This document shows positions 22,454-51,019 of a stretch of 52,671 nucleotides of DNA, piece after piece. Made by a program: the position numbers and the translations under genes. The stretch comes from Gemmatimonadota bacterium (lineage in GTDB: Bacteria; Gemmatimonadota; Gemmatimonadetes; Gemmatimonadales; GWC2-71-9). Position 1 is the first letter of the stretch. Each line of letters starts with the position of its first letter. The stretch covers positions 1 through 52,671 of the forward strand of contig JBDHJO010000004.1 of NCBI GenBank assembly GCA_039586875.1, written 5' to 3'. A model generated the notes under the pieces. The model saw nothing but the letters and a program-made list of their open reading frames with translations. It was not told the origin of the DNA and did not search any database.

Positions 22454-22511
22454 AGACCAGTTCACAGTCGCTTCAGCGCTGAATTACCTGGTACTCAGTA
22501 GGGTTTTCCAC

Positions 22512-23195
22512 ATGCGTATTCTAGTCGTCGAGGACGACCGCAAGGTCGCCGGGTTCATCGAGATGGGCCTCCGTGAGGAAGGCTATGCTGTGGATGTGGC
22601 CAAAGACGGTGAGGAGGCTACGGTCTTCGCACACATCAATGACTACGATGCCATCCTCCTCGACCTGATGCTGCCCAAGAAGAACGGGTTGCAGGTCGCG
22701 AGCGAACTGCGCCGAGAGGGACGGAGTACGCCGATCCTCATGCTGACGGCGCGGGATGCCACCGAAGATGTCGTGCGCGGGCTCGACGCCGGTGCGGACG
22801 ACTACCTCACCAAGCCGTTCAAGTTCGACGAGTTGCTGGCCCGACTGCGGGCGTTGGTCCGCCGCGGGGGCGCTGCGCGCCTCGACCGCCTCTCCTACGG
22901 GCCGCTCGAACTGGATCGCCTCAAGCACAAGGCATGGGCGGGCGAGGCTGCACTTGATCTCACGCCACGTGAGTTCCAGTTGCTCGAGCACTTCATGCTG
23001 CACCCGGAGGACGTGGTGCGCCGGACCGAGTTGTTGGAGAAGGTCTGGGACATGCACTTCGACCCGGAGAGCAACGTTGTCGATGTCCACGTCGGCAATC
23101 TGCGCCGCAAGCTTCGTGAAGTGGGTTACGAGACGCTGATCCAGACCGTGCGTGGCGTCGGGTTCTGCTTGAAAAAGAACAACTCAGGCGGCTGA
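22512..23195 (+). CDS. OmpR-family response regulator
   Basis: The receiver has DAILLDLMLP, LMLTA and YLTKPF, followed by a winged-helix output domain. Confidence 0.95.
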   Translation: MRILVVEDDRKVAGFIEMGLREEGYAVDVAKDGEEATVFAHINDYDAILLDLMLPKKNGLQVASELRREGRSTPILMLTARDATEDVVRGLDAGADDYLTKPFKFDELLARLRALVRRGGAARLDRLSYGPLELDRLKHKAWAGEAALDLTPREFQLLEHFMLHPEDVVRRTELLEKVWDMHFDPESNVVDVHVGNLRRKLREVGYETLIQTVRGVGFCLKKNNSGG

Positions 23196-30805: not shown

Positions 30806-31896
30806 CGCCCCCCGGAGGCGAGGTCGGCGGCGGTCGGCAGTCCCGGCAGCGCCGTCGCTTGCCGCACCGCGCGCAGGATGGCTTCGGCCGTCACGTCGGC
30901 GGCGAGCGCGCCGACCAGGGAGACATCGACCTCGTCATTCAGATCGCCCGTTGCCAGGCTGAACATCGTGTCACCGTCCCACGGCGTGTGCGCAGGGTAG
31001 ATGGCCCGCGCCACCCCATCCTGGGCCATCTGCGCCACTTTCGTGGCCTGCGCTTTCGTCAGGCGCGCGTTCGTGACCACGACGCCGATCGTCGTATTCT
31101 GGCCCGCCGGGGGAGCCGGCAGCACATTCGCACGCAACAACACCCTGGCGTCGGCAAGGCTCGCTCCGTCTTCGGTGCGCACACCGGCCACAACCGCACC
31201 GGTTGCCGGATCGACCACATCGCCATAGGCATTGACCGCAACCAAGGCGGCGACGACGAGTCCGCTCTGTAACCTGACGGACGCCGTGCCTAACCCTCCT
31301 CGCATCGCATGTGCCTGGCCGCGTAGTTTGCCGACCGTCGCCCCCGCGCCCGCCCCGACACTTCCTTCGGCAGTCGGCCCCGTATTTGCCCGCTGGGCTG
31401 CTTCATACCCGCACGCGGCGTCCGGCCGGATGCGGGAGTCGTCGCCGACTCGCAGATCGAACAACGAAGCCTGTACGACGATCGGCACGTAGGAGCCACC
31501 GAACGCGAACCCGACCTGGCGCTCTTCCAGGTACCGCATCACTCCACCCGACACGTTCAATCCGAACGCACTACCGCCGGACAGCACAACAGCGTGCACA
31601 ACCTCCACGGTGTTTACCGGATCCAAGAGTCCTGTCTCACGCGTCGCCGGTGCTCCCCGTACATCGACTCCGCCGACGGCACCGGCCTCCACGAGTACCA
31701 CCGTACATCCCGTCGGTCGCTCAGGGCGGACATGATGGCCAGCACGTATCCCCGGTACCGCGGTGACGCCCCACGCGGCACTGCCGCCTTCTCCCTGCGC
31801 GCCCGCCGTTGGTGCGTGCAATGCAAGACTCATGACGAGGAAAGTGATGCGGTTGGCGCCGGGGCGCCACACGGGATGACGATTGCGGACCGGCAC
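30802..31896 (-). CDS. P1/S58 (DmpA-type) aminopeptidase, secreted
   Basis: GCTVV, VDVRGAPATRET, LSGGSAFGL and the GQNTTIGVVVTNA autoprocessing site are present. The start is taken at the GTG at 31896, 6 nt after GAGGAGG. The listed start is 31932. Confidence 0.85.
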   Translation of the reverse strand: MPVRNRHPVWRPGANRITFLVMSLALHAPTAGAQGEGGSAAWGVTAVPGIRAGHHVRPERPTGCTVVLVEAGAVGGVDVRGAPATRETGLLDPVNTVEVVHAVVLSGGSAFGLNVSGGVMRYLEERQVGFAFGGSYVPIVVQASLFDLRVGDDSRIRPDAACGYEAAQRANTGPTAEGSVGAGAGATVGKLRGQAHAMRGGLGTASVRLQSGLVVAALVAVNAYGDVVDPATGAVVAGVRTEDGASLADARVLLRANVLPAPPAGQNTTIGVVVTNARLTKAQATKVAQMAQDGVARAIYPAHTPWDGDTMFSLATGDLNDEVDVSLVGALAADVTAEAILRAVRQATALPGLPTAADLASGGR

Positions 31897-32126
31897 GACA
31901 GGCCTCCTCGATACAAGGACCTTCCCCGACACCGATAAAGTACACCCGGAGGACTCACCCGATACATACCGAACCGACGGTCAGCGGTCGTTGACGGTTG
32001 CAAAACTGCCCCTGATTCCCAACCTTGCTTCCCAGCAAGGCGCCCTGGTCGAAACCCGGGCGGCATCGTCCAACATCGAGGGGGGACGTCCCACCAGATA
32101 TGCGGACCCGAGCAATCGTCAGTCAC

Positions 32127-34694
32127 ATGACGCGCGGCACCGATCGCATCGTCGTAATGCTGCTCGGCTCGTTGCTCGGATCGCCGCTCGGTGCACAGGA
32201 TGCATGTCCGCGCGTCGTGAACCCGATGGTGCAGGAGGGTTGGGACCTCTATCAGCAGGGGAACGTAGACAGTGCTCACGTCCGCTTTCGCACCGCGCTC
32301 CGGCAGTGCCCGCAGCATCCGGACGCGCTGACCGGCACGGGCTACACCTTGCTGCGGTTCGATCGGATCGACGAAGCAGCCACGCTGTTCCGCGCCGCGA
32401 TCGATGCCTCGGCCAGCGCAGCCGATGCATGGTTCGGCCTGGCACTCGTCGCGCGCCGACGCGCGAATCCAAACGCGGTGCGGGAAGCGGTGCAGGAGGT
32501 CCTCCGAATCGATCCCACGCGGCGGGACGCGCGAGAGATGTTGGCCACCGTCACACCGCCGGAACGGCCTGCACTGGTGTTGCCGGACACGATGGAGATG
32601 CGCTCCCGCACGCGGGACTCCCACTTCCAGGTACTCGTCGACGGCGTTTGGCAGACGTTCTACATCAAGGGCGTCAACCTCGGTGCTGCGTTGCCCGGGC
32701 GGTTCCCGAGCGAGTTTCCCGACTCCGTTACCTACGCCGATTGGATCGAGGGCATCGCCGAGATGGGGGCCAACACCATCCGGGTCTACACCATTCACCC
32801 CCCGCACTTCTACGAGGCGTTGGCAGCATTCAATCGGTCACATCCCGAAGCACCGCTGTGGCTGATCCACGGCGTGTGGACCGGGCTCCCGCCAGATCAC
32901 GACTTCGCCGACTCGACCTGGAATGCGGAGTTCGCAGCGGAGATGTACCGGGTGGTCGACCTCCTGCACGGCCGTGCAGACATCGCCCCCCGACCGGGAC
33001 ACGCTGCCGGATTTTACACGGCTGACGTATCCCAGTGGACGCTGGGATACATCATCGGTCGCGAGTGGGAGCCGTTCGCGGTCTTCGCCTTCGACAAGGC
33101 CCACCCGGGGCTGCATTCGTGGGAGGGTACGTATCTCCACATCACCAATGGCACCGCCACCGACGTATGGTTGACGCAGACCTGCGATCGCCTGATCGCG
33201 TACGAGACCAACACGTACAACGTGCAGCGACCTGTCGCCTACACGAGCTGGCCGACCCTCGACCCGCTGTATCACGTGACGGAGGCATCCATTGCCGAGG
33301 ATATGGCGATGCGTGGGCAGTTGGCACCGGACGAGGACGAGGAGCAACACGACGAAGACACCGCAGCGATCGATCCGTCGAAGATATCGGCCACCGCGGC
33401 GTTCCCGGCCGGGTTCTTCGCGGCGTACCACGCGTATCCGTACTACCCTGACTTCATCGTCCATGAGGGCGGGTATGCCGCATATCTTCACCGGCTGAAG
33501 GCGCACCACGCCGACATGCCGGTGGTTATCGCCGAGTACGGCGTGCCGACGAGTCTGGCCGTAGCGCACATGGCACCCGAGGGATGGCACCACGGCGGAC
33601 ATTCCGAGGCGCGGATGGCCGCCATCAACGCCGAACTCACTGAGCTCCTGGCGGCAGGCGGCATGGCCGGGGGCATTCTGTTCGCCTGGATCGACGAGTG
33701 GTTCAAACGCAACTGGCTCGTCATGAATCTCGAGCGCCCACAGGAGCGCGCGCGTCTCTGGCTCAATCGCATGAACCCGGAGCAGCAATACGGCGTGATT
33801 GCCATGGAGGCAGCGCCCCGCCTTTCCGGCAGTACCCTTGGCGATCGGCTCGTGTCATGGAAAGCGGTTCCGGCGCTGTACGCCGGGCGACTGCGGGCGC
33901 TTGCGGACGAGGCCTATCTCCGACTCCTGGTCACACCGGAGCCATCGGGAGCCGACACGATCTTCATCGGTATCGATGTCGGCGACCCCGACGCCGGTTC
34001 GTTCCGATGGCCAGCCCGGCGCGGCGGACAGCTCCCCGTAGGAGTCGAGTTCGTGATTCAGGTCACGGCCACCGAGGCGCGCATGCTCGCCGATCCCCGC
34101 GCAAAGCCGTTCCGCGTGCGACGACAGCCGACGTTCCGCGGGGAACTCGAGTACATGGACGTTGCCACTCCGCCGCCGGGCATGTTTCAGGGACCCTTCG
34201 ATCAGGTACCGAACTACCCGCTCGGTGCGGCCCGCCACACAGCGGGTCGCTACGACTCGCTTCCCATTGTCACCAACCGGGTGCGCCTGGGACGTGACAG
34301 CCTCGAGCGCGCTGCATCCGGATACGACTGGGGCATCCTCCGTCAGGGGGGTGAGCCCGACGGATTGTGGGAGCGCGATCCGGAAACGGGAACCGTGGAA
34401 GTCCGCCTGCCGTGGACGCTCATCAATGTCACCGATCCCAGCAGTCGCCGCGTGCTCGCGACCCCGCCCGACGTACGGGGGTTTCAGGGCGTGCCGATCG
34501 AAGCGATCCATCTCGCGCTGGCCATGAAGACTGCCTGGGGTGAGTGGAGCGAGTACCCGCAGGGAGGGGATGCTGTCGCCCAATTCTCCTGGGCGCCATG
34601 GGAATTCCCCTCATGGCGCGCCCGACGACGGCCGGTGTTCGAAGCAATGCGGTCCGCCTTCGAGCGGCTCCCGAGTGAGCCCAAGCAACCATGA
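32127..34694 (+). CDS. periplasmic TPR plus clan GH-A-like TIM-barrel glycoside hydrolase-like protein
   Basis: The signal peptide is ...LGSPLGAQDA. N-terminal TPR repeats are followed by FYIKGVNLG...ANTIRVYT and VVIAEYGVP (putative nucleophile Glu at 33534-33536). An alternative ATG is at 32100. Confidence 0.7.
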   Translation: MTRGTDRIVVMLLGSLLGSPLGAQDACPRVVNPMVQEGWDLYQQGNVDSAHVRFRTALRQCPQHPDALTGTGYTLLRFDRIDEAATLFRAAIDASASAADAWFGLALVARRRANPNAVREAVQEVLRIDPTRRDAREMLATVTPPERPALVLPDTMEMRSRTRDSHFQVLVDGVWQTFYIKGVNLGAALPGRFPSEFPDSVTYADWIEGIAEMGANTIRVYTIHPPHFYEALAAFNRSHPEAPLWLIHGVWTGLPPDHDFADSTWNAEFAAEMYRVVDLLHGRADIAPRPGHAAGFYTADVSQWTLGYIIGREWEPFAVFAFDKAHPGLHSWEGTYLHITNGTATDVWLTQTCDRLIAYETNTYNVQRPVAYTSWPTLDPLYHVTEASIAEDMAMRGQLAPDEDEEQHDEDTAAIDPSKISATAAFPAGFFAAYHAYPYYPDFIVHEGGYAAYLHRLKAHHADMPVVIAEYGVPTSLAVAHMAPEGWHHGGHSEARMAAINAELTELLAAGGMAGGILFAWIDEWFKRNWLVMNLERPQERARLWLNRMNPEQQYGVIAMEAAPRLSGSTLGDRLVSWKAVPALYAGRLRALADEAYLRLLVTPEPSGADTIFIGIDVGDPDAGSFRWPARRGGQLPVGVEFVIQVTATEARMLADPRAKPFRVRRQPTFRGELEYMDVATPPPGMFQGPFDQVPNYPLGAARHTAGRYDSLPIVTNRVRLGRDSLERAASGYDWGILRQGGEPDGLWERDPETGTVEVRLPWTLINVTDPSSRRVLATPPDVRGFQGVPIEAIHLALAMKTAWGEWSEYPQGGDAVAQFSWAPWEFPSWRARRRPVFEAMRSAFERLPSEPKQP

Positions 34695-36337
34695 CACCGA
34701 TTCGGGTACTCGTCATGCTGGTCGTCACGCTCTCTCTGGCTGCGTCAGGGTTGCACGCACAGGACCCGGCAGACGACGCGTGGAACCGGGGCGACCATGA
34801 GACCGCCCGAGCGTTGTACGCAGAGCGCGTCGCGGTCGACTCGTCGGACGTTCGGGCGCTACATCGGCTCGCCTTGCTCTTCGCCTGGAATCGTGAGTTC
34901 ACGCCGAGCCTTGCCCTCTTCGATCGCTTGTTGGACGTCGTGCCGGACAACGTCGAGGCGCAGGTGGATCGCGCGCGCGTGCTGTCGTGGGCAAGCCGCT
35001 TCGACGAGTCGGTGGCGGCATACGCTGACGTCCTGCGGCAACGACCCACCGAGCGACAGGCACGGCTCGGATTGGCACAAGTACTCTCATGGTCGGGGCG
35101 GCTGGACTCGGCTACCGTCGTGTACGAGGATCTCCTCGCGGACGACCCCCGTGATCTCGATGCGCTCCGCGGGATTGCGCGCGCCACGGCGTGGAGCGGC
35201 GATCTCAAGCACGCGGAAATGCACTGGCGAGAGGCACTCGAGGCCGGCGGGGATGACGGGGCGACGCTGATCGGTCTGTCCCAAACGCTGCGGTGGCAGG
35301 GACGGGCTGGCGAGGCCCGCGACGCGCTTGAACGGGTACCGCTGGACCAACGGAGCATGCCTGAGTACGTCGATGAATCGCGCTGGGTGGACGTTGCCTT
35401 GTCGCCGACCGTCGCTCCGTCGGTGACCTACGAGTGGGACTCCGACGGCAACGAGATGATGACCGTGGCCCTCCGCGGGAGCCACCCCGTCACGACCCGT
35501 GCCCGGATCGAGCTTGCCGGGTACCTCAGGACGACGTGGGACGACCCCCCCGCGAACGATCCACAGTACGACGAGCGGCTCCTGTCGTGGGGCGTCACAC
35601 TCGGCGGACGCTATGTGTTCGCACCCGGCTGGGCCGTCGGTGCCGGTGCGGGCCTGTCGAGCACGAATGCCACCGACGCCTGGACCGAGCCCCTCTTCTT
35701 TGCCAATGTCTCGAGCCCGAGTCGCAACCGCGTCGCCGGGAGACTGAGCTTCACCCGTAGCGCCTTCGACCCAACGAGGGATCTGGTCGAGCGCGGAGTC
35801 ACGTTCACCGAGACCTCAGCCAGTATCACACTCCGCCCAGCTGATCGTTGGGGTGTCGATGCCGGCGTGGCGTACGGCATCTTCGACGGCAGCGAATCGA
35901 ACGGTCGTCTCCTGGGACACGCAACGGGCAACTACCGCGTCACCCCATCATGGGCAGCCCTCGCGCGGATCAGGAGCTTCGGCTTCGAGAAGAGCCGTGG
36001 GACACCTGGCACCGCGGGCTACTTCAACGACAGTTACTTCAATCCGGCGTTTTACTTCCTTGGCGAAGTGTTTCCTCGATGGCAGCCACTCCGCGGCCCG
36101 TGGCACCTGTCGGCCGAGTTCGGACTCGGGATCGAGCACATCGACATAGGTCCCGGACAGACGCCAACGACGCGCTGGCCCACGTATCGCGGTTCCGTGC
36201 GCGCGGCGTATGATCTCGCGCCCGGTCGCCAGATCAGCCTTGCAGGCATGTACACCGACAATGCCGGGCCCTTTGCCGGGAATACCCCAGGGTACAGGTA
36301 CGTCGCGGCCACCCTTGCCGGATCGTGGGCGTTTTGA
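34691..36337 (+). CDS. outer-membrane TPR plus beta-barrel exopolysaccharide export protein (PgaA/BcsC-like architecture)
   Basis: The ATG overlaps the upstream stop (ATGA). A signal peptide and about 200 aa of TPR repeats are followed by a Gly/Tyr/Ser-rich barrel ending in LAGSWAF. Confidence 0.7.
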   Translation: MTPIRVLVMLVVTLSLAASGLHAQDPADDAWNRGDHETARALYAERVAVDSSDVRALHRLALLFAWNREFTPSLALFDRLLDVVPDNVEAQVDRARVLSWASRFDESVAAYADVLRQRPTERQARLGLAQVLSWSGRLDSATVVYEDLLADDPRDLDALRGIARATAWSGDLKHAEMHWREALEAGGDDGATLIGLSQTLRWQGRAGEARDALERVPLDQRSMPEYVDESRWVDVALSPTVAPSVTYEWDSDGNEMMTVALRGSHPVTTRARIELAGYLRTTWDDPPANDPQYDERLLSWGVTLGGRYVFAPGWAVGAGAGLSSTNATDAWTEPLFFANVSSPSRNRVAGRLSFTRSAFDPTRDLVERGVTFTETSASITLRPADRWGVDAGVAYGIFDGSESNGRLLGHATGNYRVTPSWAALARIRSFGFEKSRGTPGTAGYFNDSYFNPAFYFLGEVFPRWQPLRGPWHLSAEFGLGIEHIDIGPGQTPTTRWPTYRGSVRAAYDLAPGRQISLAGMYTDNAGPFAGNTPGYRYVAATLAGSWAF

Positions 36338-36472
36338 CGGTCAGTCGGACCGTGCCGATGTGGTCGACTTTTCCATCAGTGGTTCGTATCATGTTGATTG
36401 ACATTCGGTTGCGACAATCCGACGACGGGTCGGGCGAGCGCGTTGCGCCGATCACTCCGAATCGGGACCAGC

Positions 36473-37774
36473 ATGCCGAACACTGCTGACCACGCAGTTG
36501 TCCGCATTCTCATCGTCGACGACGACCAGCACACGCTCGACGTTGCCCGACAGGCGCTGCGCGCGCCTGACCTCGAAGTCCTCGCCGCTCATTCCGCCGC
36601 CGAGGCGGAGGCCCTGCTCGAAGGTCAAACCGTCAACCTCATTCTCCTCGGTCTCGTGCTCCCCGATGCGGACGGCCGGTCGGTCCTGCAGCGCTTGGGG
36701 GAGAAAGCGCCGACGGCGACGGTGCCGGTGATGATGCTGGCTGAAGAGATCGGCCCGAACCCGAAGGAAGAGTGTATTGGCCTCGGAGTCGCGGACTTCA
36801 TTGCAAAACCTGTCGACCCCGAATCGCTCGCCAATGCCATCGCGGCCACGCTGGAGCGCGCGTCCAGCGAACACCCGAGTCCGCTGCATGACCCGGTAAC
36901 CGGGCTCGCGAATCGCGCCGCGTTCCTCGACCGTTTCATGGCAAACGTCACCGAGAGCTCGCGATCCGGCCATTACTCAGCGATGGCACTCTTGGACTTG
37001 GACGGTCTGGCGCAGATCAACTCGGCGTGGGGCAACGCCATGGGTGACCAGGTACTGACCCACACCGGACATGCGATCGCCGAGTTGATCCGTGATCACG
37101 ACATGATCGCACGATGGCGGGAAGACGAGTTTGCCGTCCTGTTGCCAGGCATGGATCTCGACACGGCCGCACGTCTCTTCGCCAAGGCGCAGGCGGTGCT
37201 CACGACGTCGCCGCTGGCAGTCTCGGACAACGTGGAGCTGACGGCGACGTTCTGTGCCGGGATCACGACCGCGGTTTCGGGGGCAAAGGTGCAGGAGGTG
37301 ATCTCGCAGGCCGAGCGCGCACTCGTGCATGCGAAGCGTCGGGGCGTGTCACACGTGGTCACCTCCGAGGAGGAGTTCCCGGACGAGCCGGCGACTGTGC
37401 TCATTGCAGAAGACGACCGCGTCTCGGCGGCGCTCGTACGTCATCGGATCGAGCGTGCCGGTCTCACGGTCATCCACCGCGAGAACGGGACCGAGGCATT
37501 GGAGGCGGCGAAGCAGCACGCTGTCGACCTGTTCATTTTGGATATTCGCATGCCACGCATGGATGGCTTCGAGCTCCTCCGGTCACTCCGTGCCCTGCCA
37601 CAGTACGCCGACACGCCGATCCTCATGCTGACGAGCTTGGGCCGCGAAGAAGACATCGTACGGGCCTTTCACCTCGGCGCGAGCGATTATGTGACGAAGC
37701 CCTTCTCACCCGTCGAGTTGCTGGCGCGCGTACAACGACTGCTGCGGTCGCACGCCTCAACCCGCCGCCTCTAA
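36473..37774 (+). CDS. pseudo-receiver / degenerate GGDEF (REDEF, I-site RDHD intact) / receiver protein
   Basis: REC1 has Gly in place of the acceptor Asp (LILLGLVLP, codon 36650-36652). In the GGDEF domain, RDHD lies at 37091-37102 and REDEF at 37118-37132. REC2 is canonical (FILDIRMP, LMLTS, YVTKPF). Confidence 0.85.
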   Translation: MPNTADHAVVRILIVDDDQHTLDVARQALRAPDLEVLAAHSAAEAEALLEGQTVNLILLGLVLPDADGRSVLQRLGEKAPTATVPVMMLAEEIGPNPKEECIGLGVADFIAKPVDPESLANAIAATLERASSEHPSPLHDPVTGLANRAAFLDRFMANVTESSRSGHYSAMALLDLDGLAQINSAWGNAMGDQVLTHTGHAIAELIRDHDMIARWREDEFAVLLPGMDLDTAARLFAKAQAVLTTSPLAVSDNVELTATFCAGITTAVSGAKVQEVISQAERALVHAKRRGVSHVVTSEEEFPDEPATVLIAEDDRVSAALVRHRIERAGLTVIHRENGTEALEAAKQHAVDLFILDIRMPRMDGFELLRSLRALPQYADTPILMLTSLGREEDIVRAFHLGASDYVTKPFSPVELLARVQRLLRSHASTRRL

Positions 37775-37780
37775 CAGAGG

Positions 37781-38848
37781 GTGTCCGTGACACCCGAGGT
37801 GCAGGAATTCGGCAGCCGAGTCCTCCTGCTCCTGATCATCGGCATCGCGCTCTTGGTCCTGCTGGCGATCGGGTTCGCCATCTCCGTCGTCATGCTCCGC
37901 AGGAAAAACGATCGCACCCGCGTTCACTGGCAGCGTCTCGAGAGCAAGTGGGACGAGGTTCTGCTGGACGTGCTCGCCGGCGCCCGGCCAAAAGACGCAT
38001 TTTGGGAGATCGTCGCACCTGGAGAGCAGCTGTACGCGGTCAACTATGTGTTGCGGTACATCAAGCGTGTCGAGGGGGAGGAGCGGGTCCGTCTGCAGGA
38101 GCTCGGGCGCCCGTATCTCGAGCCCGTCATTCCTCGCATGCAGCGTGGCGATCCGGAGCGCCGGGCGCGCGCGGTGCAAACCGTCGGTGAGATCGGCTTG
38201 CCCGAACATGCCGAGTTGGTGATCCGAGCGCTCGACGATCCGTCTCCGCTGGTCGCGATGGTCGCTGCCCGGTCGCTGGCGCGGAAGGAGCACCCAGAGT
38301 TCATCCGCGAGGTTCTCAAGCGGCTTCACCGCTTTTCGACGTGGAGCCGCAACTTCCTCTCGTCGATGCTGGCGGCGGTGGGTGCCGATGCCATGCCCAT
38401 TCTGCGAGAGGTGTACGGAGATCCGCACCACCCAACGCAAGTGCGTGCCATCGTCGCACAGGCGCTGGGCTACCTCCACGACTTCGGGGCTGCCGATGTG
38501 GCGGCCCGAGTCCTGGAGACGGAGGAGGATCGTGAGATACTCGCGGCATCACTCCGGTTGATCAGCGGTGTCGGTCAACCCGAGCACCTGCCCGCAGTGC
38601 GCCGGTTGGTGACATCTTCGGACTTCGTGGTCCGGGCCGCGGCCGTCAGCGCCATCGGAAACATTGGCCGGCCGGACGACATGCCGCTCTTGCACACGGC
38701 CTGTGAGGATGATTCGCGCTGGGTCGCAATCCATGCCGCGCGGGCGCTCCGCGACGCGGGCCATGTCGACAGCCTCCAGAAGCTCGCCGCTTCGGGACGC
38801 GCGCGGGCCACCCTCGCGATGCAGGTCCTCTCCGAGGTGGACCTGTGA
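37781..38848 (+). CDS. membrane-anchored HEAT-repeat protein
   Basis: One N-terminal TM helix (LLLLIIGIALLVLLAIGFAISVV) is followed by repeated HEAT/PBS-lyase-like units (RARAVQTVGEIG, VRAAAVSAIGNIG, IHAARALRDAG). Possible starts are GTG 37781 or GTG 37787. The stop overlaps the GT2 start. Confidence 0.7.
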   Translation: MSVTPEVQEFGSRVLLLLIIGIALLVLLAIGFAISVVMLRRKNDRTRVHWQRLESKWDEVLLDVLAGARPKDAFWEIVAPGEQLYAVNYVLRYIKRVEGEERVRLQELGRPYLEPVIPRMQRGDPERRARAVQTVGEIGLPEHAELVIRALDDPSPLVAMVAARSLARKEHPEFIREVLKRLHRFSTWSRNFLSSMLAAVGADAMPILREVYGDPHHPTQVRAIVAQALGYLHDFGAADVAARVLETEEDREILAASLRLISGVGQPEHLPAVRRLVTSSDFVVRAAAVSAIGNIGRPDDMPLLHTACEDDSRWVAIHAARALRDAGHVDSLQKLAASGRARATLAMQVLSEVDL

Positions 38849-40296
38849 CCGGCTTCGCCATCCTCCTCACCGGCCTCACGCTCTTCAACGCCGTCGTGCT
38901 CGTGTATTTCGTCGTGCTGAACACGGTGTACCTGACCACCAGCATCATCGCGTTCCGCGACATCCGGCGGTACGTCCGGCGGCTCAAGTCCCTGGATTTC
39001 GGGGACCTTCTGTCGTCCGAGGGCATGCCACCGGTCACCGTGATCGCGCCGGCGTTCAACGAGGAGCTCACCTGTGTCGAGTCGGTCAGCTCTCTCCTCA
39101 TGCTCGAATACCCGCAGTACGAGGTCGTGGTCGTGAACGACGGCTCGACCGACGGGACGCTCACACAGCTGCAAAAGGCGTTCGATCTCGTTCCCGCAGC
39201 ACGCCTTCCGACGGCAGAGCTCGCAACGGCACCGGTGCGGCGAGCATACCAGAGCCAGCGGCGTCCGAACCTGTGGGTGATCGACAAGGAAAACGGTGGG
39301 AAATCCGATGCGCTCAACGCCGGTATCAACCTGTGCGTGACGCCGCTCTTCTGCGCCATGGACGCCGACAGCATCCTCGAGCGCGACGCACTCATGCGCA
39401 TCGTCCGTCCGTTTCTCGAAGATGCCAACACGATTGCGGCCGGTGGCGTGGTCCGTATCGCGAACGGCTGTACAATCAAAGACGGCAACGTGACGGGTGT
39501 GCGGTTTCCCCGTAATCTGTGGGCGCGCTTTCAGGTGTTGGAATACCTCCGCTCGTTTCTTGCCGGTCGCATGGGATGGGCCGTGCTGGATGCAACGCTG
39601 ATCATCTCCGGGGCGTTCGGCGTCTTTCGACGGAACACCGTCGTCGCGGCCGGCGGCTACGCGTCGGAGTACACGAGCGGCAGCACCGTGGGCGAGGACA
39701 TGGAGCTGGTTGTCCGACTGCACCGGCACTGCCGCGAGCGGAAGATCCCATATCACATCCGGTTCGTCCCCGACCCCGTGGCCTGGACGGAATGCCCCGA
39801 GTCGCTGCGCACGCTCGCACGGCAACGCGACCGCTGGCAGCGCGGCATGGCCGAGAGCCTGCTCCGCCACCGCACGATGCTGTTCAACCGCCGGTATGGT
39901 CGCATTGGCTTCCTCGCCTACCCGTACTTCCTGTTTCTCGAAACGCTTGGTTTGCCGATCGAGATCTTGGGGTACTTCGCGTTTGCCGTGACGGTGGTGT
40001 TGGGTTTGGCCGAACCCGTATACGTCGTGGGCTTCTTCATGGCGGCCTTTGCCTTCGGCATGGTCCTGTCGATCGCGGCAGTCGGCTTGGAGGAGTTGGG
40101 GTTCCGCCGGTACCCGAAGGTCGGGGATCTCGTCCGCTTGTTCGTGTTGGGTGCAGCCGAGAACTTCGGCTATCGGCAGCTTATTGCGTTCTGGCGGCTT
40201 CACGGTCTGATTTCTGCTGTACGAGGCAAGAAACACTGGGGCACAATGGAGCGACAGGGGTTTCGGGACGATCGCATCAAGAAGGACGCGGCATGA
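38845..40296 (+). CDS. processive family-2 glycosyltransferase (PgaC/cellulose-synthase-like polysaccharide synthase)
   Basis: The GTG overlaps the upstream stop (GTGA). The protein has an N-terminal TM helix, VVVNDGSTD, GGKSDALNAG, MDADS, GEDMEL, QRDRW (39823-39837) and several C-terminal TM helices. Confidence 0.9.
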   Translation: MTGFAILLTGLTLFNAVVLVYFVVLNTVYLTTSIIAFRDIRRYVRRLKSLDFGDLLSSEGMPPVTVIAPAFNEELTCVESVSSLLMLEYPQYEVVVVNDGSTDGTLTQLQKAFDLVPAARLPTAELATAPVRRAYQSQRRPNLWVIDKENGGKSDALNAGINLCVTPLFCAMDADSILERDALMRIVRPFLEDANTIAAGGVVRIANGCTIKDGNVTGVRFPRNLWARFQVLEYLRSFLAGRMGWAVLDATLIISGAFGVFRRNTVVAAGGYASEYTSGSTVGEDMELVVRLHRHCRERKIPYHIRFVPDPVAWTECPESLRTLARQRDRWQRGMAESLLRHRTMLFNRRYGRIGFLAYPYFLFLETLGLPIEILGYFAFAVTVVLGLAEPVYVVGFFMAAFAFGMVLSIAAVGLEELGFRRYPKVGDLVRLFVLGAAENFGYRQLIAFWRLHGLISAVRGKKHWGTMERQGFRDDRIKKDAA

Positions 40297-42227
40297 CCGA
40301 TCCGTCGATGCGACCGGTCGATTGGGACGTTCTTGCACGGATCAGCCACGATCTGCGCACGCCGATGAACGGCATCATCGGCCTCGTCGAGCTCCTCCAT
40401 CACACCGAATTGGATCCGGAGCAGCGTCGCTCCGTCGAGCTCATCAAGATCTCGGCCGAATCGTTGATGGGGCTCGTGAACGACATTCTCGACCTGTCGA
40501 GATTGCGAAGCGATCGTGTGGAGCTCGAAGACATCGTCTTCGACGTCGGTACGTTGGTCGATTCTACCGTCCGGCTCTTACGCGTCCGGGCCTTTGAGCA
40601 GAACATCGATTTGACGTACGAGATCGACGCCGACGTTCCGCGGATGGTTCGTGGTGACCCCAGTCGCCTGCGCCAGATTCTCACGAATCTCATCGGCAAC
40701 GCCATCAAGTTCACCCGCCAGGGCAGCGTCGATCTGTCCGTCTCCTGCCGGAGCGACAGCCGTTGTGCAGGCGGGATTCACTTCGTGGTTCGCGACACCG
40801 GGATCGGGATTCCGGCCGACCGGTTGGACGCAATCTTCGAGGAGTACTCTCAAGCGTCGATCAGTACGGCGCGCGAGTACGGCGGCACCGGGCTTGGCCT
40901 TGCGATTGCACGCCACCTTGCCCACCTGATGGGGGGCGCTATCTCGGTGAGGAGCACCCTCGGTGTCGGCAGCGCGTTCGCTGTGGACGTCCAACTCACG
41001 CCGGTCGCGGCGGACGAGCCTCTGGAAGTTGGAGGTGACCATACGACCCTGGAGACCGCGCGGGTGCTCGTTATCGACGATCACGCGGAGTCTCGAGGGG
41101 CATCGGTCGCGGTTCTCCAGAATGTCGGCGTCGACGTGCGGGGGATGAGGCGAGGCGACGACGGTGTGGACGAGTTACGCCGTGGGTTCGCCGACAGCAG
41201 CCCGTACCAGCTCGTGATCCTCGACGCATGGGTGGGAGGCGAGGACGGCTTTGACCTCGCAGCGACGATTCTTTCGGACGATCACCTGCGCGACACCCGC
41301 GTCATACTGTTGACGAACTCCGGGCGCAGGGGTGACGGCCAACGATGCCGTGATATCGGGATTCATGGCTACCTCACCAGGCCCGTGGAACCTGACGATC
41401 TCGTGACTGCCACGGCACGCGTGCTTGCGGGCCGCGACGACGACCTGGTCACGCGCCACTTCCTCGAGGAGCGACGGCGGCGGCTTCGCATCCTCCTGGC
41501 GGATGACAACGAGGTCAATCGACAGGTCGCCGTGGCAATCCTCGAGAAGCGTGGTCATACGGTCGACAGTGTCGTGGACGGTACGGAGGCGGTCGACGCG
41601 GCCGCGTCGGCGGTTTACGACGTGGCGTTGCTCGACGTCGAAATGCCGGAGATGGACGGACCGTCCGCTGCGGGCAAGCTACGCACGTTACCCAGCGCAG
41701 CCCGGACACAGATCGTGGGAATGACGGCCCACGCGAACTTCGCCAACGAAGCCACGTTCCGCGCTGCTGGCATGGACGCGTGTATCACCAAACCTTTCAA
41801 GCCACGGGACCTCGTGCGCGTCGTCGAATCGATCGCTGCCCCCGCGTCGCCGGGCCGGACGAGCGGTCACGTCGACCGCGTCGTCGATCCCGTCAATCTC
41901 ACCGAATTCCGCCGGATGATGCGCGAGGCCGGCATCGAGGGTACGGCAAACAAGATCATCACCGTGTTCTTGGAAGATGCGCCGCAGCGCATGGCGGCCC
42001 TGCATGAGGCCACGAACGCGCGGAATGGGCAGGACATTCGTATGGCCGCCCACGCCTTCAAGTCCGCCGCCGCGACCATTCGCGCAGAGAGTCTCGCGGA
42101 GTTGTTGAACCACGTGGAAAAGGCGGGCGAGCTCGACGACATCGACAAGGCCGCCGAGCTCCTCCCGCAGGTGCATGCCGAAGCGGACAGCGTGCAGGCG
42201 TTTCTCGAGCCCCTGCGCACCGACTGA
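40293..42227 (+). CDS. cytoplasmic hybrid histidine kinase: HisKA-HATPase-REC-REC-HPt, with no sensor domain
   Basis: The ATG overlaps the GT2 stop (ATGA). The H-box SHDLRTPMNGI begins at residue 18. The G-box is GTGLGLAIARHLA. There are two receivers and an HPt (AHAFKSAAA). Confidence 0.9.
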   Translation: MTDPSMRPVDWDVLARISHDLRTPMNGIIGLVELLHHTELDPEQRRSVELIKISAESLMGLVNDILDLSRLRSDRVELEDIVFDVGTLVDSTVRLLRVRAFEQNIDLTYEIDADVPRMVRGDPSRLRQILTNLIGNAIKFTRQGSVDLSVSCRSDSRCAGGIHFVVRDTGIGIPADRLDAIFEEYSQASISTAREYGGTGLGLAIARHLAHLMGGAISVRSTLGVGSAFAVDVQLTPVAADEPLEVGGDHTTLETARVLVIDDHAESRGASVAVLQNVGVDVRGMRRGDDGVDELRRGFADSSPYQLVILDAWVGGEDGFDLAATILSDDHLRDTRVILLTNSGRRGDGQRCRDIGIHGYLTRPVEPDDLVTATARVLAGRDDDLVTRHFLEERRRRLRILLADDNEVNRQVAVAILEKRGHTVDSVVDGTEAVDAAASAVYDVALLDVEMPEMDGPSAAGKLRTLPSAARTQIVGMTAHANFANEATFRAAGMDACITKPFKPRDLVRVVESIAAPASPGRTSGHVDRVVDPVNLTEFRRMMREAGIEGTANKIITVFLEDAPQRMAALHEATNARNGQDIRMAAHAFKSAAATIRAESLAELLNHVEKAGELDDIDKAAELLPQVHAEADSVQAFLEPLRTD

Positions 42228-43562: not shown

Positions 43563-44819
43563 CTACTCGGGCACGCGCGCAACCACGGCCGATGTGTCCG
43601 CCGGACCCCGCCGAAGCGTGACAGCGACGCGGTCGCCGCGGGTCAGTGTCCACGTTGCAGGATCGAGCGTGGATGGAGTCACGAGATGCAGATAGTGACC
43701 GGTGGCATCGAGGGTATCGAGCGCCCTCACGTCTTGAAGATCTCCGATTTCATCCAGGACGAGGCCGGATCGCGCCACCGGATCTTCGTAGCGAAGTGCT
43801 ACATCAAGGTCCATCGGTGCTCCCCCTGGCACGACGACAACTCCCCCCCGGACCAGGAGATCCGCCGGCACCGACTCGTTGAACGGCAGCGTCTCGTACG
43901 GCTCGATGTCGATATCTCCGAACCGCTCGGCTGCAATCGCCTCGAGTGCGGTGAGAATGAGACGGGCGTTGAGTCGCCGCAGCTTCTGCTTCTCGGGATC
44001 GCCCGGCAGGGCCCCGCTCTCGATGAGGATGGTACTGGTACCCCACTGCTGGATGAGATCCCCGAACGCCCGCGGATTGAAGGTGTCATCGTACTTCGCC
44101 ACCCGACCCGGGATTGCGTCGGCGAGCCCGCGCGCCAAGATCGACGCCAGGGCGCGTGCGCGACTGCGCACCGGGCCGTAGGACCGTGCAGAGTCGGCTG
44201 CTGGGGCCAACAACGCAATTGCAACCTGTGCACCGTCAGCTCCTGCCGTGTTGCGAGCGCTCTGATCGTGGAGGTTGAACCCGAACGCCGGTTGTAGGCT
44301 ATCCCGCAACGCCTTGAGAACCCGTCCCTCGGGAGTGGCCAACCGCCTGGCGTCGCGATTGATATCCACCCCCACGGCATTGTGGCGACGGAAGACTTCC
44401 GCCCCGTCGGGGTTCAGCATTGGCAGCATGACGACTGTGAGTCGATCACGGATCGTCACCCGGAGCCCGTCGTCGGACTGCGCGAAGAAGCGCACGATGT
44501 CGGCGAGCGCCATCGTCGCCGTGGACTCGTCCCCGTGCATCTGCGACCACAGTAAGACGTGCGTCGGGCCGGTGCCGAAGGTCACTGCATGGATGGCGCG
44601 GCCCTGTACAGAGTGGCCGACGCTCGTGACCGTGACATCACCGACGCCATCGAACGGCAGCAACGCATTCCACAGGTGCGTGTGGGTGAAACGGCGCTCC
44701 GTGAACGACGCGAGGCGGTATGCGTCTACAACGCTGTCAGGTACGAGGGCACAACACGACGGTGCGTGGGGACTCGTCGCAACGATTGCCGGCAGGAGGA
44801 GAGACGCAATGGTAAGCAT
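43563..44819 (-). CDS. M14 family zinc carboxypeptidase
   Basis: Starting from MLTIASLLL. It has the zinc motif WSQMHGDEST, NPDG and DINRD. The listed 730-aa ORF extends antisense into the mutarotase gene. Confidence 0.85.
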   Translation of the reverse strand: MLTIASLLLPAIVATSPHAPSCCALVPDSVVDAYRLASFTERRFTHTHLWNALLPFDGVGDVTVTSVGHSVQGRAIHAVTFGTGPTHVLLWSQMHGDESTATMALADIVRFFAQSDDGLRVTIRDRLTVVMLPMLNPDGAEVFRRHNAVGVDINRDARRLATPEGRVLKALRDSLQPAFGFNLHDQSARNTAGADGAQVAIALLAPAADSARSYGPVRSRARALASILARGLADAIPGRVAKYDDTFNPRAFGDLIQQWGTSTILIESGALPGDPEKQKLRRLNARLILTALEAIAAERFGDIDIEPYETLPFNESVPADLLVRGGVVVVPGGAPMDLDVALRYEDPVARSGLVLDEIGDLQDVRALDTLDATGHYLHLVTPSTLDPATWTLTRGDRVAVTLRRGPADTSAVVARVPE

Positions 44820-44996
44820 CGGCGCTTCGAACACGTGGAGGGTTGCAGGCTGTCGGTGACGTGCACAGCCTGCAACGTGAGGTCCCGGCCCCGGACGAGC
44901 AAGCCCACCACACGGACCGCCTATGGTCTCTTGGTGGCCAATCGTCCACGTTGCAGGGTACAGAGGCCTCCCGACGGGGAGAAAGGAGTGTCCCAC

Positions 44997-46058
44997 ATGG
45001 ACGTCAGACAGTTCGGGTACGGGGCGTTGCTCGATGGAACGCCCGTCGATGCCTTCACGGTTCGCAATACAAACGGGATGGCATTCACCGCCATAACGTA
45101 CGGAGGGATCGTCGTCTCGATCGAGACCCCCGATCGTCGAGGAGCGACGGCCGATGTCGTACTCGGGTTCGGCGATCTGGCCGGATACCTGGGCGACCAT
45201 CCGTACGTCGGAGCCATCGTCGGTCGCTACGCCAACCGGATCGCCAAGGGGATGTTCACACTCGACGGCACCGCCTACACGCTCGCAACGAACAATCCCC
45301 CGAACCACCTGCACGGCGGGAACCAGGGCTTCGATGCCGTCATATGGAATGCCGAACCGATCCGCGGGGTGGACAGCTCGGGTGTGACCCTGCGCTACAC
45401 AAGCCCAGACGGGGACGAGGGATACCCGGGCAATCTCGCGGTGACCGTGGCCTACACGCTCACGAACGACAATGCGCTGACCATGGACTATCATGCGCAC
45501 ACCGACGCACCGACGCCGGTGAACCTCACCCAACACACGTACTTCAACCTGTCCGGTGACCCGACCCGCGATGTCTTGGATCACGTCGTTTGCATCGATG
45601 CCGATCGATTCACGCCCGTGGACAGCACACTCGTTCCGACCGGCGCCCTGGCGTCGGTTGCCGGCACCCCGTTCGATTTCACGACACCACATTCGATCGG
45701 AGCGCGGATCGCGGACGACCACGAACAGCTGCAATACGGCAGCGGTTACGACCACAACTTCGTGCTGGGGATAGGCAAGACACCACTCGAGCGTGCGGCG
45801 TTCATCGAGGAACCGTCATCCGGTCGCACCCTAGAGGTCTCCACCACCGAGCCTGGTGTGCAGTTCTACACCGGCAACTTCCTGGATGGGAGCCTCATCG
45901 GTAAGGGTGGTCGGCCCTACCCACGACGCTCCGGCTTCTGCCTCGAAACGCAACACTTCCCGGACTCCCCGAACCACCCGGCCTTCCCGAGTACTATCCT
46001 CCGGCCCGGTGAAGAATACCGCTCTCGCACGGTGTGGCGCTTCGGGATCACCCCATAA
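44997..46058 (+). CDS. aldose 1-epimerase (galactose mutarotase)
   Basis: The ATG lies 8 nt after AAAGGAG. GRYANRIA, NHLHGG, YDHNF and FCLETQHFPDSPN blocks are present. Confidence 0.9.
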   Translation: MDVRQFGYGALLDGTPVDAFTVRNTNGMAFTAITYGGIVVSIETPDRRGATADVVLGFGDLAGYLGDHPYVGAIVGRYANRIAKGMFTLDGTAYTLATNNPPNHLHGGNQGFDAVIWNAEPIRGVDSSGVTLRYTSPDGDEGYPGNLAVTVAYTLTNDNALTMDYHAHTDAPTPVNLTQHTYFNLSGDPTRDVLDHVVCIDADRFTPVDSTLVPTGALASVAGTPFDFTTPHSIGARIADDHEQLQYGSGYDHNFVLGIGKTPLERAAFIEEPSSGRTLEVSTTEPGVQFYTGNFLDGSLIGKGGRPYPRRSGFCLETQHFPDSPNHPAFPSTILRPGEEYRSRTVWRFGITP

Positions 46059-47529: not shown

Positions 47530-47793
47530 ACATGTTCCCTTCGGTGTGCCTGACGGGGTGCGTACAGTTGCCGAGGCGTCGGCAACAAGGGGTTGCGGGC
47601 GTGTTACCCCAACTTCTCGTGCAGCCGAGGGGAAGGCAAATCTCGAGCGTCCCTGGCGTCTTTTGGTTCCTCGCGTTGGCACGTGGACTGAGGGGTGCGC
47701 CCGGCAGTGCACGTTTCCCTGGCTCCCGGCGTCGCGTTACCCCATCTTTCGGGCAAGAGTCTGCCTTCCGGGCGAGATGCACCCGGAGGCATC

Positions 47794-48531
47794 ATGACCG
47801 TTGGAGTCACAATGACCACACCACAGGGTGCTATTCCCGACCTCACGATCGAGACGCTGTCCCGCAGCTTCTTCAAGGAATCCGTCAACTACGGATTCAC
47901 GCAGATGGACTACGTGCGTTTCGTGAACCGCCTTCTCGATCTGTCCATGAATCAGACCGGCGATGGAACGTCAGGCCAGGAAGATTCCGCCGCCGTCGAC
48001 GTGGCTGCGCCGCGCGAGCCAGCCACACTGCCGCTCATGGGTCCCAACATCCGCGTTCGAGCATTTGCCGAGGCCGACGATCTCATGCGTCTCGAGCAGT
48101 GGATCGCCGAGGCGGGCGGGCGGTACTTCTTGCTCTCCCGCACCACTTCGCGCGCGATGAGCGTTGCCGACCTGGTGCACAGCGACGGCAGCGTTCTCGG
48201 GGTGATCACGCTGCCGGACGGCACGCCCATCGGGTGCGTGGCGTTTCTCGATTACGACGCTGACCAGCGAAAGGCCGAACTTCGCAAGCTCGTCGGCGAT
48301 CCGGCGCAGCGTGGCAAAGGGTACGGGAAAGAAGCGTCAGCACTGTGGATCCGGTATGGACTCACGACGCTTGGCCTCAAGAAGATCTATCTCAACACCC
48401 TTGAAACCAACATCCACAACGTTCACCTGAACGAAGAGCTCGGCTTCCGCGTCGAGGGCATCCTGCGCAACGAATTGTTGATCGACGGGGAGTACCGCGA
48501 TGTCCTGCGTATGGGGTTGTGGAGCGAATGA
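47794..48531 (+). CDS. GNAT (RimJ/RimL-like) N-acetyltransferase with an N-terminal ~90-aa extension
   Basis: The ATG follows GGAGG. KLVGDPAQRGKGYGKEA is motif A, and a typical C-terminal ...DVLRMGLW is present. Confidence 0.75.
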   Translation: MTVGVTMTTPQGAIPDLTIETLSRSFFKESVNYGFTQMDYVRFVNRLLDLSMNQTGDGTSGQEDSAAVDVAAPREPATLPLMGPNIRVRAFAEADDLMRLEQWIAEAGGRYFLLSRTTSRAMSVADLVHSDGSVLGVITLPDGTPIGCVAFLDYDADQRKAELRKLVGDPAQRGKGYGKEASALWIRYGLTTLGLKKIYLNTLETNIHNVHLNEELGFRVEGILRNELLIDGEYRDVLRMGLWSE

Positions 48532-50959: not shown

Positions 50960-51019
50960 GGTCGTTCCCCTACCCACCCTTTCGGCATGTCGATCCACGC
51001 TCGCTGTTGCGCCGCACCT

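Follow-up and report, generated by a model that had tools for sequence, protein, structure and literature searches.

A Gemmatimonadota gene cluster that probably encodes a phosphorelay-switched exopolysaccharide synthase with a HEAT-repeat partner

To our knowledge, synthase-dependent secretion of exopolysaccharides (EPS) is known from four or five model systems, all of them belonging to Proteobacteria or Firmicutes; in nearly all, the gate is cyclic diguanylate (c-di-GMP) bound to the synthase complex. A minimal system of this kind with local c-di-GMP control, NfrB-NfrA-YbcH (the N4 receptor glycan of E. coli), has been recognised recently. The c-di-GMP receptors PelD, YdaK and PssE are membrane-anchored and have no receiver domains, and PopA of Caulobacter is a precedent for a degenerate GGDEF domain working as an I-site-dependent adaptor. 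The present analysis concerns a locus of six genes (G1 to G6) at positions 32127-42227 of a 52,671-nt stretch of DNA, referred to below as the window, from the Gemmatimonadota bacterium assembly GCA_039586875.1 (contig JBDHJO010000004.1, positions 1-52,671). With fair rather than high confidence, the locus belongs to an uncharacterised family of synthase-dependent exopolysaccharide machines that extends over several phyla and would be switched by a phosphorelay through the mechanism proposed below. The six genes, in which a family 2 glycosyltransferase (GT2) occurs together with tetratricopeptide repeat (TPR), receiver (REC) and histidine phosphotransfer (HPt) domains, are as follows.

G1, 32127-34694, + strand, 855 amino acids (aa): TPR protein with a putative clan GH-A glycosidase domain
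G2, 34691-36337, + strand, 548 aa: TPR protein with a probable outer-membrane barrel
G3, 36473-37774, + strand, 433 aa: REC-GGDEF-REC protein
G4, 37781-38848, + strand, 355 aa as called from the first GTG: HEAT-repeat protein
G5, 38845-40296, + strand, 483 aa, GTG start: GT2, putative processive synthase
G6, 40293-42227, + strand, 644 aa, ATG start: hybrid histidine kinase with HPt

The listing and translation of open reading frames (ORFs) placed all six genes on the + strand. Stop and start codons overlap as ATGA at 34691 (G1/G2), GTGA at 38845 (G4/G5) and ATGA at 40293 (G5/G6), as read from the letters, and the sole real intergenic gap is the 135 nt between G2 and G3 (36338-36472). An earlier reading of this DNA from its letters and ORFs, hereafter the sequence-only reading, had described such a same-strand cluster with these overlaps and this single real gap, and had assigned to it a GH-A-like TIM barrel (G1), a TPR plus beta-barrel outer-membrane protein (G2), a pseudo-receiver/degenerate-GGDEF/receiver protein (G3), a membrane-anchored HEAT-repeat protein (G4), a multi-transmembrane processive GT2 with QRDRW (G5) and a sensor-less hybrid kinase with HPt (G6). 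The ORF listing, the letters and Pfam agree with this arrangement and these domain contents, and structural models with the claims on G1 and G5; for G2 the TPRs were recovered by Pfam and hhalign, and the barrel is deduced from sequence features. A 6-nt gap between G3 and G4 (37775-37780), also part of that reading, holds for the ORF as called. Two in-frame GTG codons lie within 37781-37789, and the true start of G4 is probably the one at 37787 rather than 37781, because GAGG stands at 37777-37780 and an identical database protein has 353 aa; the gap would then be 12 nt.

G5 is assigned to GT2 by Pfam (Glyco_tranf_2_3, Glycos_transf_2 and Glyco_trans_2_3). It carries the motifs of processive synthases, D99, D173xD175, E284-D285 and Q327RDRW (aa 327-331; 39823-39837), which are invariant in the family, as is a C-terminal tail, WG..ME..GF (40234-40263), the protein ending 24 residues past its last helix. 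Hydropathy analysis revealed N-terminal transmembrane (TM) segments and a C-terminal TM cluster. For the AlphaFold2 (AF2) model of G5 (pLDDT 68.8, pTM 0.67), the best full-length PDB matches found by Foldseek were the Chlorella-virus hyaluronan synthase, Xenopus HAS1 and BcsA (E 2e-11 to 1e-9, TM-score ~0.5), with 14-18% identity to the hyaluronan synthases and BcsA in the structural alignments. Aligned with BcsA, the family profile covers positions 254-406, a stretch running from the acceptor-binding motif to within the membrane helices. Sequence motifs, hydropathy and fold are in agreement and indicate a processive, membrane-embedded synthase, which shares 63-79% identity with family homologues across phyla.

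The HEAT protein G4, encoded directly upstream, matches Pfam HEAT_2 (8.6e-29). Its single TM segment (aa 15-39) is followed by RRKNDRTR, which under the positive-inside rule predicts a cytoplasmic location for the HEAT solenoid. Family alignments revealed two invariant motifs, ERRARAVQT and LDDPSPLVAMVAAR. A profile search of 1.84 billion representatives recovered 962 clusters of the family (50% identity) at E<=1e-30; the database names contain nothing beyond generic terms (HEAT repeat, hypothetical protein), and the cluster members looked up for ten HEAT representatives were environmental sequences with generic or absent names. In some homologues, including P0366 and other long ones, an SH3_3 domain precedes the TM segment at the N-terminus or further HEAT repeats are added at the C-terminus, and a Pfam search of the longer homologues for informative fusions returned solely these two features.

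The distribution of the locus indicates that G4 and G5 form its core. At least 7992 of 8000 candidates scored are G5 relatives at E<=1e-20, and the best 120 of them, 63-93% identical, come from Gemmatimonadota, Longimicrobiales, Omnitrophota, Fidelibacterota and Neomarinimicrobiota. When GTDB species were scanned, each represented by one genome, at least 600 stretches matched, at least 575 of which encode a GT2 relative, and linkage was counted by tblastn with the domains of the window on the best 80 of these; this set also includes metagenome-assembled genomes of Nitrospirae, Sericytochromatia and Rhodothermales. All the relatives listed, and all genomes in the 80 loci, are metagenome- or single-cell-derived. 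A G4-type HEAT gene lies directly upstream of the GT2 gene, on the same strand, at 73 of the 74 loci with enough upstream DNA, and this adjacency spans Gemmatimonadota, Marinimicrobia/Fidelibacterota, Omnitrophota, Nitrospirae and Rhodothermales. Because it recurs so regularly, the pairing appears to be more than chance. The following loci illustrate the range of arrangements.

L001, Fidelibacterota: DUF5107-TPR, GGDEF-REC, HEAT, GT2, TPR-YaiO
L002, Omnitrophota: HPt-REC-GGDEF-REC, REC, NTP_transf_2 gene, HEAT, GT2, TPR-YaiO, GH5
L083, 408-13526, GT2 79% identical: REC, HEAT, GT2, G1, G2, REC-GGDEF-REC, HEAT, GT2, hybrid histidine kinase
L084, Longimicrobiales: HPt, REC, MASE3/PAS kinase, REC-GGDEF-REC, HEAT, GT2
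L085: G1, G2, REC-GGDEF-REC, HEAT, GT2 with a C-terminal HPt fusion
L092, Longimicrobium: CHASE3/PAS kinase, REC, HPt-REC-GGDEF-REC, HPt-REC (opposite strand), HEAT, GT2, G1, G2

The closest long relative, the JGI 3300041080 contig (L083), contains the six genes of the window in the same order, preceded by a second REC-HEAT-GT2 set. It thus has two tandem HEAT-GT2 pairs, with G1-G2 directly following a GT2 gene; the window has the second pair alone plus G1 and G2, and a search of it for a further HEAT-GT2 pair found none. Synteny in related and distant genomes, on which the sequence-only reading depended, is therefore present, both as the HEAT-GT2 pair and as the six-gene order of L083. The quartet of GT2, HEAT, GGDEF and kinase genes that it had singled out is conserved in part: the pair is nearly constant, the gene preceding HEAT carries a GGDEF domain (REC-GGDEF-REC) at 38 of 69 loci, and a G6-like kinase core was detected by tblastn within 34 of the 80.

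A TPR-barrel gene is linked at 39 of the 80 loci, about half, and a YaiO-type one directly follows the GT2 gene at 22 of 76. These counts bear on the possibility that the product is not a secreted EPS at all, being instead a periplasmic or envelope-bound glycan, or that G5 glycosylates a lipid or protein acceptor. Loci without an adjacent outer-membrane component, such as L084, would fit such a role. Against it stand the linked TPR-barrel genes, the QxxRW motif set, the multiple TM segments and the fact that the best structural matches of G5 are polymer-translocating synthases, and this alternative is considered very improbable.

The regulator G3 contains, according to Pfam, a GGDEF domain between two Response_reg domains, and hydropathy analysis gave no TM segment. 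The first receiver is a pseudo-receiver with Gly60 where the acceptor Asp is expected (36638-36676). The GGDEF domain is degenerate, reading REDEF at aa 216-220 (37118-37132) and lacking also the FK, ND and GH substrate-binding residues, and it retains the RxxD of the I-site as RDHD (37091-37102), five residues before REDEF, the canonical spacing. The second receiver is canonical, with acceptor Asp357 in FILDIRMPRMDG (37532-37567). Alignments with 43 syntenic homologues, 44 regulators in all, revealed a graded series. GG[DE]EF is present in 18 of the 44, mainly from Marinimicrobia/Fidelibacterota, and 17 of these 18 have RxxD; the Marinimicrobia homologues are canonical, with GGEEF plus RxxD. 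The remaining 26 are degenerate and only five of them, G3 of the window included, keep RxxD. In the subclade of the window R[DE]DEF is stable, the first receiver has no Asp and three of four members keep RxxD. The DD, D and K residues of the second receiver are conserved in nearly every homologue, whereas the first receiver and the GGDEF domain decay. At several Gemmatimonadota loci a lone receiver precedes HEAT, and it is nearer the second receiver of G3 (112-131 bits) than the first (28-37 bits). Since the state of the GGDEF domain varies, from that of a canonical cyclase to one in which both sites are lost, the constant partner of HEAT-GT2 is, judging from these alignments, a phosphorylatable receiver, and cyclase or c-di-GMP-receptor function is variable.

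These same data are relevant to the question of whether c-di-GMP is the primary switch, with G3 activating the synthase as an I-site receptor in the manner of PelD or PopA and phosphorylation merely tuning it. From the degenerate A-site and the retained RxxD we infer that G3 may be a c-di-GMP receptor, the role given to it by the sequence-only reading. The intact GGEEF cyclases of Marinimicrobia, which would tie the system ancestrally to c-di-GMP, the stability of R[DE]DEF in the subclade, the RxxD of three of its four members and a REC-HD-GYP gene adjoining the L083 cluster all favour this explanation. However, RxxD is lost in 21 of the 26 degenerate homologues, the nearest GTDB relative has HAAD in its place (L003/L083), some loci have merely the lone receiver before HEAT, and Pfam and NCBIfam detected neither PilZ nor MshEN nor any other known c-di-GMP module in the two proteins G4 and G5. 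The loss of RxxD in relatives makes c-di-GMP sensing by G3 uncertain, and a primary role of this nucleotide is possible but rather unlikely. The best reading is that the conserved switch would be a phosphorylated receiver acting via the HEAT subunit, and c-di-GMP an input of ancestral origin that has been lost in part.

Compared with described regulators, G3 resembles PelD (Pseudomonas), YdaK (B. subtilis) and PssE (Listeria) in its dead A-site, its retained RxxD and the location of its gene next to the synthase gene. It differs in being soluble, in lying between a pseudo-receiver and a canonical receiver, in being encoded together with a kinase and HPt, and in that many of its relatives have no RxxD. 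The YdaJKLMN and PssA-E systems, compared by description, combine a membrane-bound degenerate GGDEF protein with a GT2 and a BcsB-like partner, whereas G3 has no TM segment. PleD and PopA of Caulobacter, and WspR, likewise couple receivers to GGDEF, and the PleD family (NF007135) is the best NCBIfam match of G3, at 224.7 bits against a cut-off of 474. The order in G3 is REC-GGDEF-REC, however, as opposed to REC-REC-GGDEF in PleD, it has REDEF in place of GG[DE]EF, and its gene is within a synthase operon.

The phosphorelay is represented in the window by G6, in which Pfam recognised HisKA, HATPase_c, a first receiver (a), a second receiver (b) and HPt, in this order, and no sensor domain. With no TM segment, it is predicted to be a cytoplasmic hybrid histidine kinase. 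The phospho-sites His19 (H-box), Asp448 (receiver b) and His587 of HPt (42051-42080) are canonical, and receiver a has Asp311, with the conserved Lys replaced by Arg. Models for BarA-, TorS- and ArcB-type kinases all scored below cut-off on G6. The ortholog in L083 has the same domain architecture. A longer G6 beginning at 39519 was rejected: the additional 774 nt (39519-40292) would encode an Arg/Gly/Pro-rich, out-of-frame reading of G5, an artefact of high G+C with no sensor domain. A separate kinase/response regulator/kinase cluster at 21206-24583 of the window matches the G6 kinase core and the receivers of G3 and G6 in tblastn.

In relatives, HPt domains are found fused to other components. 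They are joined to the REC-GGDEF-REC protein in L002 and L092, and in P0016 and P0017 an HPt domain is fused to the C-terminus of the GT2 (gene L085:10001-11830), sharing with the HPt of G6 the motif HA[FWY][KR]..AAT.RA, which includes the phospho-accepting His. The GT2-HPt fusion is, at the level of sequence, a Rosetta-stone link of the synthase to the phosphorelay, and the invariant C-terminal tail of the synthase is therefore predicted to be cytoplasmic. Another apparent fusion, of GT2 to a YaiO barrel (P0091, 720 aa), was discounted, an internal signal-peptide-like segment suggesting two adjacent genes merged by the gene call. It is tentatively proposed, with doubt outweighing conviction, that HEAT-GT2 constitutes a new synthase class in which a phosphorylated receiver docks post-translationally on a HEAT co-subunit and c-di-GMP is an add-on discarded by several lineages.

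On the export side, the signal peptide of G1 is followed by four to five TPRs (aa 28-142), the only feature given by Pfam. Its residues 186-855 (670 aa) have no Pfam family at E<=10 and no match among PDB sequences; comparison of G1, G4 and G5 with the latter returned merely TPRs, designed HEAT repeats and N-terminal halves of generic GT2 enzymes. The AF2 model of G1 (35-sequence alignment; pLDDT 84.9, pTM 0.82) contains a (beta/alpha)8-type domain at about aa 160-560, then C-terminal beta-sandwich domains. Its best non-TPR Foldseek matches are the GH157 endo-beta-1,3-glucanase of Labilibaculum (9g4n/9fz9, E 1e-10), followed by GH2 and GH35 enzymes, all of clan GH-A. In this clan the acid/base and nucleophile Glu residues follow strands 4 and 7. 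The candidates in G1 are E313/E315 in GREWEP (33057-33074), after strand 4, and E470 in IAEYGVP (33528-33548), after strand 7, and all three are invariant in 35 homologues. G1 thus models as a periplasmic protein combining TPRs with a clan GH-A glycosidase, nearest to GH157. Its family comprises 2042 database proteins, none of them named beyond 'TPR protein'.

G2 also has a signal peptide, followed by a TPR region (aa 26-225, Pfam TPR). Its C-terminal part (aa 236-548, about 310 residues) is rich in Gly, Ser, Thr and aromatic residues, has no TM helix and ends in ...LAGSWAF; Pfam gave weak sub-threshold matches to OMP_b-brl and Autotransporter. On the basis of this composition, the signal peptide, the final ...SWAF and these matches, it is a probable outer-membrane beta-barrel porin. 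The TPR of G2 is homologous to that of the TPR+YaiO-barrel genes following GT2 in other phyla (hhalign 99.3%, columns 27-233); homology in this comparison was confined to the TPR halves, and a YaiO-type barrel could not be shown.

The 135-nt gap raises the question of whether G1-G2 and G3-G6 are unrelated units, the former serving glycan degradation or uptake from its own promoter and the latter being a separate signalling and glycosylation module. The gap contains the only sigma-70-like site of the region (36364-36392, TCGACT-17-TATCAT). The promoter and terminator scan was not above chance and, since 1.7 such sites were expected against one found, the site is by itself no evidence of function. 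Also in favour of two units, G1 and G2 are missing from most HEAT-GT2 loci, and one fused G1+G2 gene lies away from GT2. This gene is one of several encoding hydrolase, TPR and barrel in single proteins of about 1480-1495 aa (P0171, P0187, P0213 and P0238). The genome encoding P0238 has a HEAT-GT2 pair on another contig (L067). On the other side, G1 and G2 recur beside HEAT-GT2 in varied arrangements (L003-L006, eight REC-HEAT-GT2 loci, L083, L085 and L092), HEAT, GT2, G1 and G2 are contiguous in Longimicrobium L092 and in L083, so that the two genes directly follow GT2 there, and other phyla place a TPR-barrel gene with homologous TPRs after GT2. A chance neighbourhood of two units therefore has very little probability.

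Among the described systems, PgaABCD/IcaADBC is the one most similar to the locus. It includes the closest sequence relative of G5 and has a similar layout, in which a GT2 and a small membrane partner encoded beside it are accompanied by a (beta/alpha)8 hydrolase of the periplasm and by a TPR+barrel porin, whose counterpart is probably G2. The best NCBIfam match of G5 is PgaC_IcaA (TIGR03937; 125.8 bits, cut-off 422.3), followed by an XrtG-associated GT2 (103/364), NodC (53/550), CelA (TIGR03030; 42.5/699) and PRK11498 (22.7/992). In E. coli K-12, BLASTP found PgaC as the best match (26.6% identity over 323 aa, E 4e-27), then YaiP (E 2e-7), BcsA (E 1.5e-6) and NfrB (E 0.14). G2 scored 25 bits against PgaA (TIGR03939, cut-off 366.65), with its TPR part alone, and 17 against BcsC (cut-off 858), and BLASTP of G2 gave nothing with PgaA, NfrA or YaiO (NfrA E 6.5).

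The locus could accordingly be viewed as a divergent Pga/Ica system making poly-beta-1,6-N-acetylglucosamine (PNAG), with G4 in place of PgaD, G1 in place of the hydrolase half of PgaB and G2 in place of PgaA. The ranking of PgaC among the matches of G5, at 126 bits, and the parallels of the TPR+barrel protein and periplasmic (beta/alpha)8 hydrolase to PgaA and PgaB favour it. However, the G5 score is far under the cut-off of 422 bits, no CE4 or polysaccharide-deacetylase Pfam match was found in any of the six proteins, G1 has no similarity to E. coli PgaB (BLASTP E 5.2), and no PgaB/GH153 structure is among the 50 structural matches listed for it. G4 shows no similarity to PgaD, being a 355-aa cytoplasmic HEAT protein with one TM segment, whereas PgaD has 137 aa and two TM segments. 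The hydrolase of the window is of the GH-A/GH157-like type, the phosphorelay and REC-GGDEF-REC protein are encoded inside the locus, and the Omnitrophota locus L002 has a GH5 cellulase-family gene instead. A divergent Pga system is thus distinctly unlikely.

Bcs and class I hyaluronan synthases provide the best structural and profile matches of G5, sharing with it the D, DxD, ED and QxxRW core and a self-built membrane channel. BcsC and BcsZ parallel G2 and G1, although G1 is of GH-A type and BcsZ belongs to GH8. The locus differs from Bcs in having neither PilZ (no Pfam match) nor any BcsB similarity among the six proteins (BLASTP), and the activity switch would not be built into the synthase. 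As regards Pel, no GAF match was found in the six proteins and G5 is a GT2, whereas the Pel synthase PelF is a GT4; with PelD, which has GAF and a degenerate GGDEF, G3 has in common solely the degenerate GGDEF and the I-site; PilZ, AlgK, AlgE and lyase families of the alginate system are absent from the Pfam and NCBIfam matches of the six. The Nfr system also has a GT2, a TPR+barrel protein and a periplasmic accessory, but G5 hardly resembles NfrB, as seen above, MshEN is missing and homology between G2 and NfrA could not be detected.

For none of the six proteins was the NCBIfam cut-off of a named EPS family reached, be it Pga, Bcs or another. The sequence-only reading had stated that PgaB-type deacetylase, PgaD, PilZ, BcsB, Pel and Alg parts are absent, and that no characterised system has this composition. 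Pfam, NCBIfam and BLASTP matched none of these parts, and no characterised EPS operon with high identity and synteny was found. In the open-access literature searched, no paper on a HEAT-GT2 system and no description of such a composition was found, and the operon survey PMC7112194 makes no mention of HEAT, Gemmatimon-, response regulators or histidine kinases. The features that appear to be new are the HEAT co-subunit, receiver-centred phosphorelay control with HPt-synthase fusions, and a GH-A glycosidase family outside Pfam.

The following mechanism is proposed as to protein-protein contacts, the direction and partners of phosphotransfer, c-di-GMP binding, export and polymer. G5 and G4 would form the inner-membrane engine, the cytoplasmic HEAT solenoid of G4 standing beside the GT2 catalytic domain. 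G6 would autophosphorylate and pass the phosphoryl group to its own receiver, then to HPt and finally to Asp357 in the second receiver of G3. Phosphorylated G3 would act on the cytoplasmic face of G4-G5, turning polymerisation and translocation on or off. In the lineage of the window the GGDEF domain is predicted to be catalytically dead and its RxxD may provide an additional c-di-GMP input, while the G3-type protein of other phyla would be an intact cyclase supplying c-di-GMP locally. The polymer would cross the periplasm along the TPRs of G1 and G2 and exit through the barrel of G2, and the GH-A domain of G1 may trim it or clear the periplasm.

As to the polymer itself, a beta-linked homoglycan built from a housekeeping UDP-sugar is the most likely candidate, because G5 belongs to the inverting GT2 enzymes, neither the cluster nor its immediate neighbours encode nucleotide-sugar biosynthesis, and glycosidases are among the partners. 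These glycosidases, GH157-like in the window and GH5 in L002, are a weak hint of a beta-glucan rather than PNAG.

Several observations count against the interpretation of the locus as a phosphorelay-switched EPS machine. The model of G5 is of moderate confidence (pLDDT 68.8), with a TM-score of only ~0.5 to hyaluronan synthases, and hhalign of the G2 family with E. coli PgaA, NfrA and YaiO gave no significant match (PgaA 7.6%, NfrA 4%). G1 and G2 occur in merely 16 of the 80 loci and are variable accessories, not part of an invariant core, and the fused gene encoding P0238 (L091:10001-14488) is not beside any GT2. To these may be added the loss of RxxD in the closest GTDB relative and in most degenerate homologues, the lack of a sensor domain in G6 and the different glycosidases of the inspected loci.

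If HEAT-GT2 does constitute the new synthase class tentatively proposed above, abundant uncultured phyla of soil and ocean (Gemmatimonadota, Marinimicrobia) make a matrix polymer by a mechanism unseen in Pga, Bcs, Pel and alginate. A well-conserved synthase family (60-79% identity across phyla) would be tied to a novel kind of obligatory partner, the HEAT solenoid anchored in the membrane, and its regulators would be receiver-domain proteins, apparently fed by a phosphorelay whose HPt is sometimes fused to the synthase. The family is common in Gemmatimonadota and Marinimicrobia, two groups that abound in soil and ocean and of which few members, if any, have been cultured and studied; the polymer that it makes may therefore be widespread and may serve to form matrix or aggregates. 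The regulators would form a natural series for the gain and loss of c-di-GMP control, from active cyclase through a degenerate domain with I-site and one without it to the lone receiver, and G1 would define a large glycosidase family, of about 2000 proteins, that has no Pfam or CAZy-style assignment.

Other possible accessory genes were observed in the relatives. Marinimicrobia-type loci (L022, L025, L029, L031, L038, L059, L073 and L082) share a gene for a conserved protein some 396 aa long, which has an N-terminal TM segment, matches no Pfam family and is possibly another accessory of the system; the gene follows the TPR-YaiO gene or GT2, e.g. L031:12925-14115. In L001 a 1006-aa DUF5107+TPR protein (L001:4709-7727) is encoded upstream of the regulator, where Gemmatimonadota have G1, and may be an alternative periplasmic accessory. 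The L083 cluster is followed by an sCache/CHASE8 kinase, the REC-HD-GYP protein and further kinases.

The G+C content is 64-67% throughout the window, and an Rfam search of the whole window, together with one of 31700-36700 at E<=1, found no riboswitch, including those of the c-di-GMP type, or other RNA. The locus is sharply bounded by unrelated genes on the minus strand: those for an S58 peptidase and for an SSF symporter lie upstream, and downstream is that for an MscS channel. The window also encodes an 812-aa Ser/Thr protein kinase with C-terminal TPRs (48560-50998, - strand) and, near it, a GNAT acetyltransferase (47695-48531) and an aldose 1-epimerase (44559-46058).

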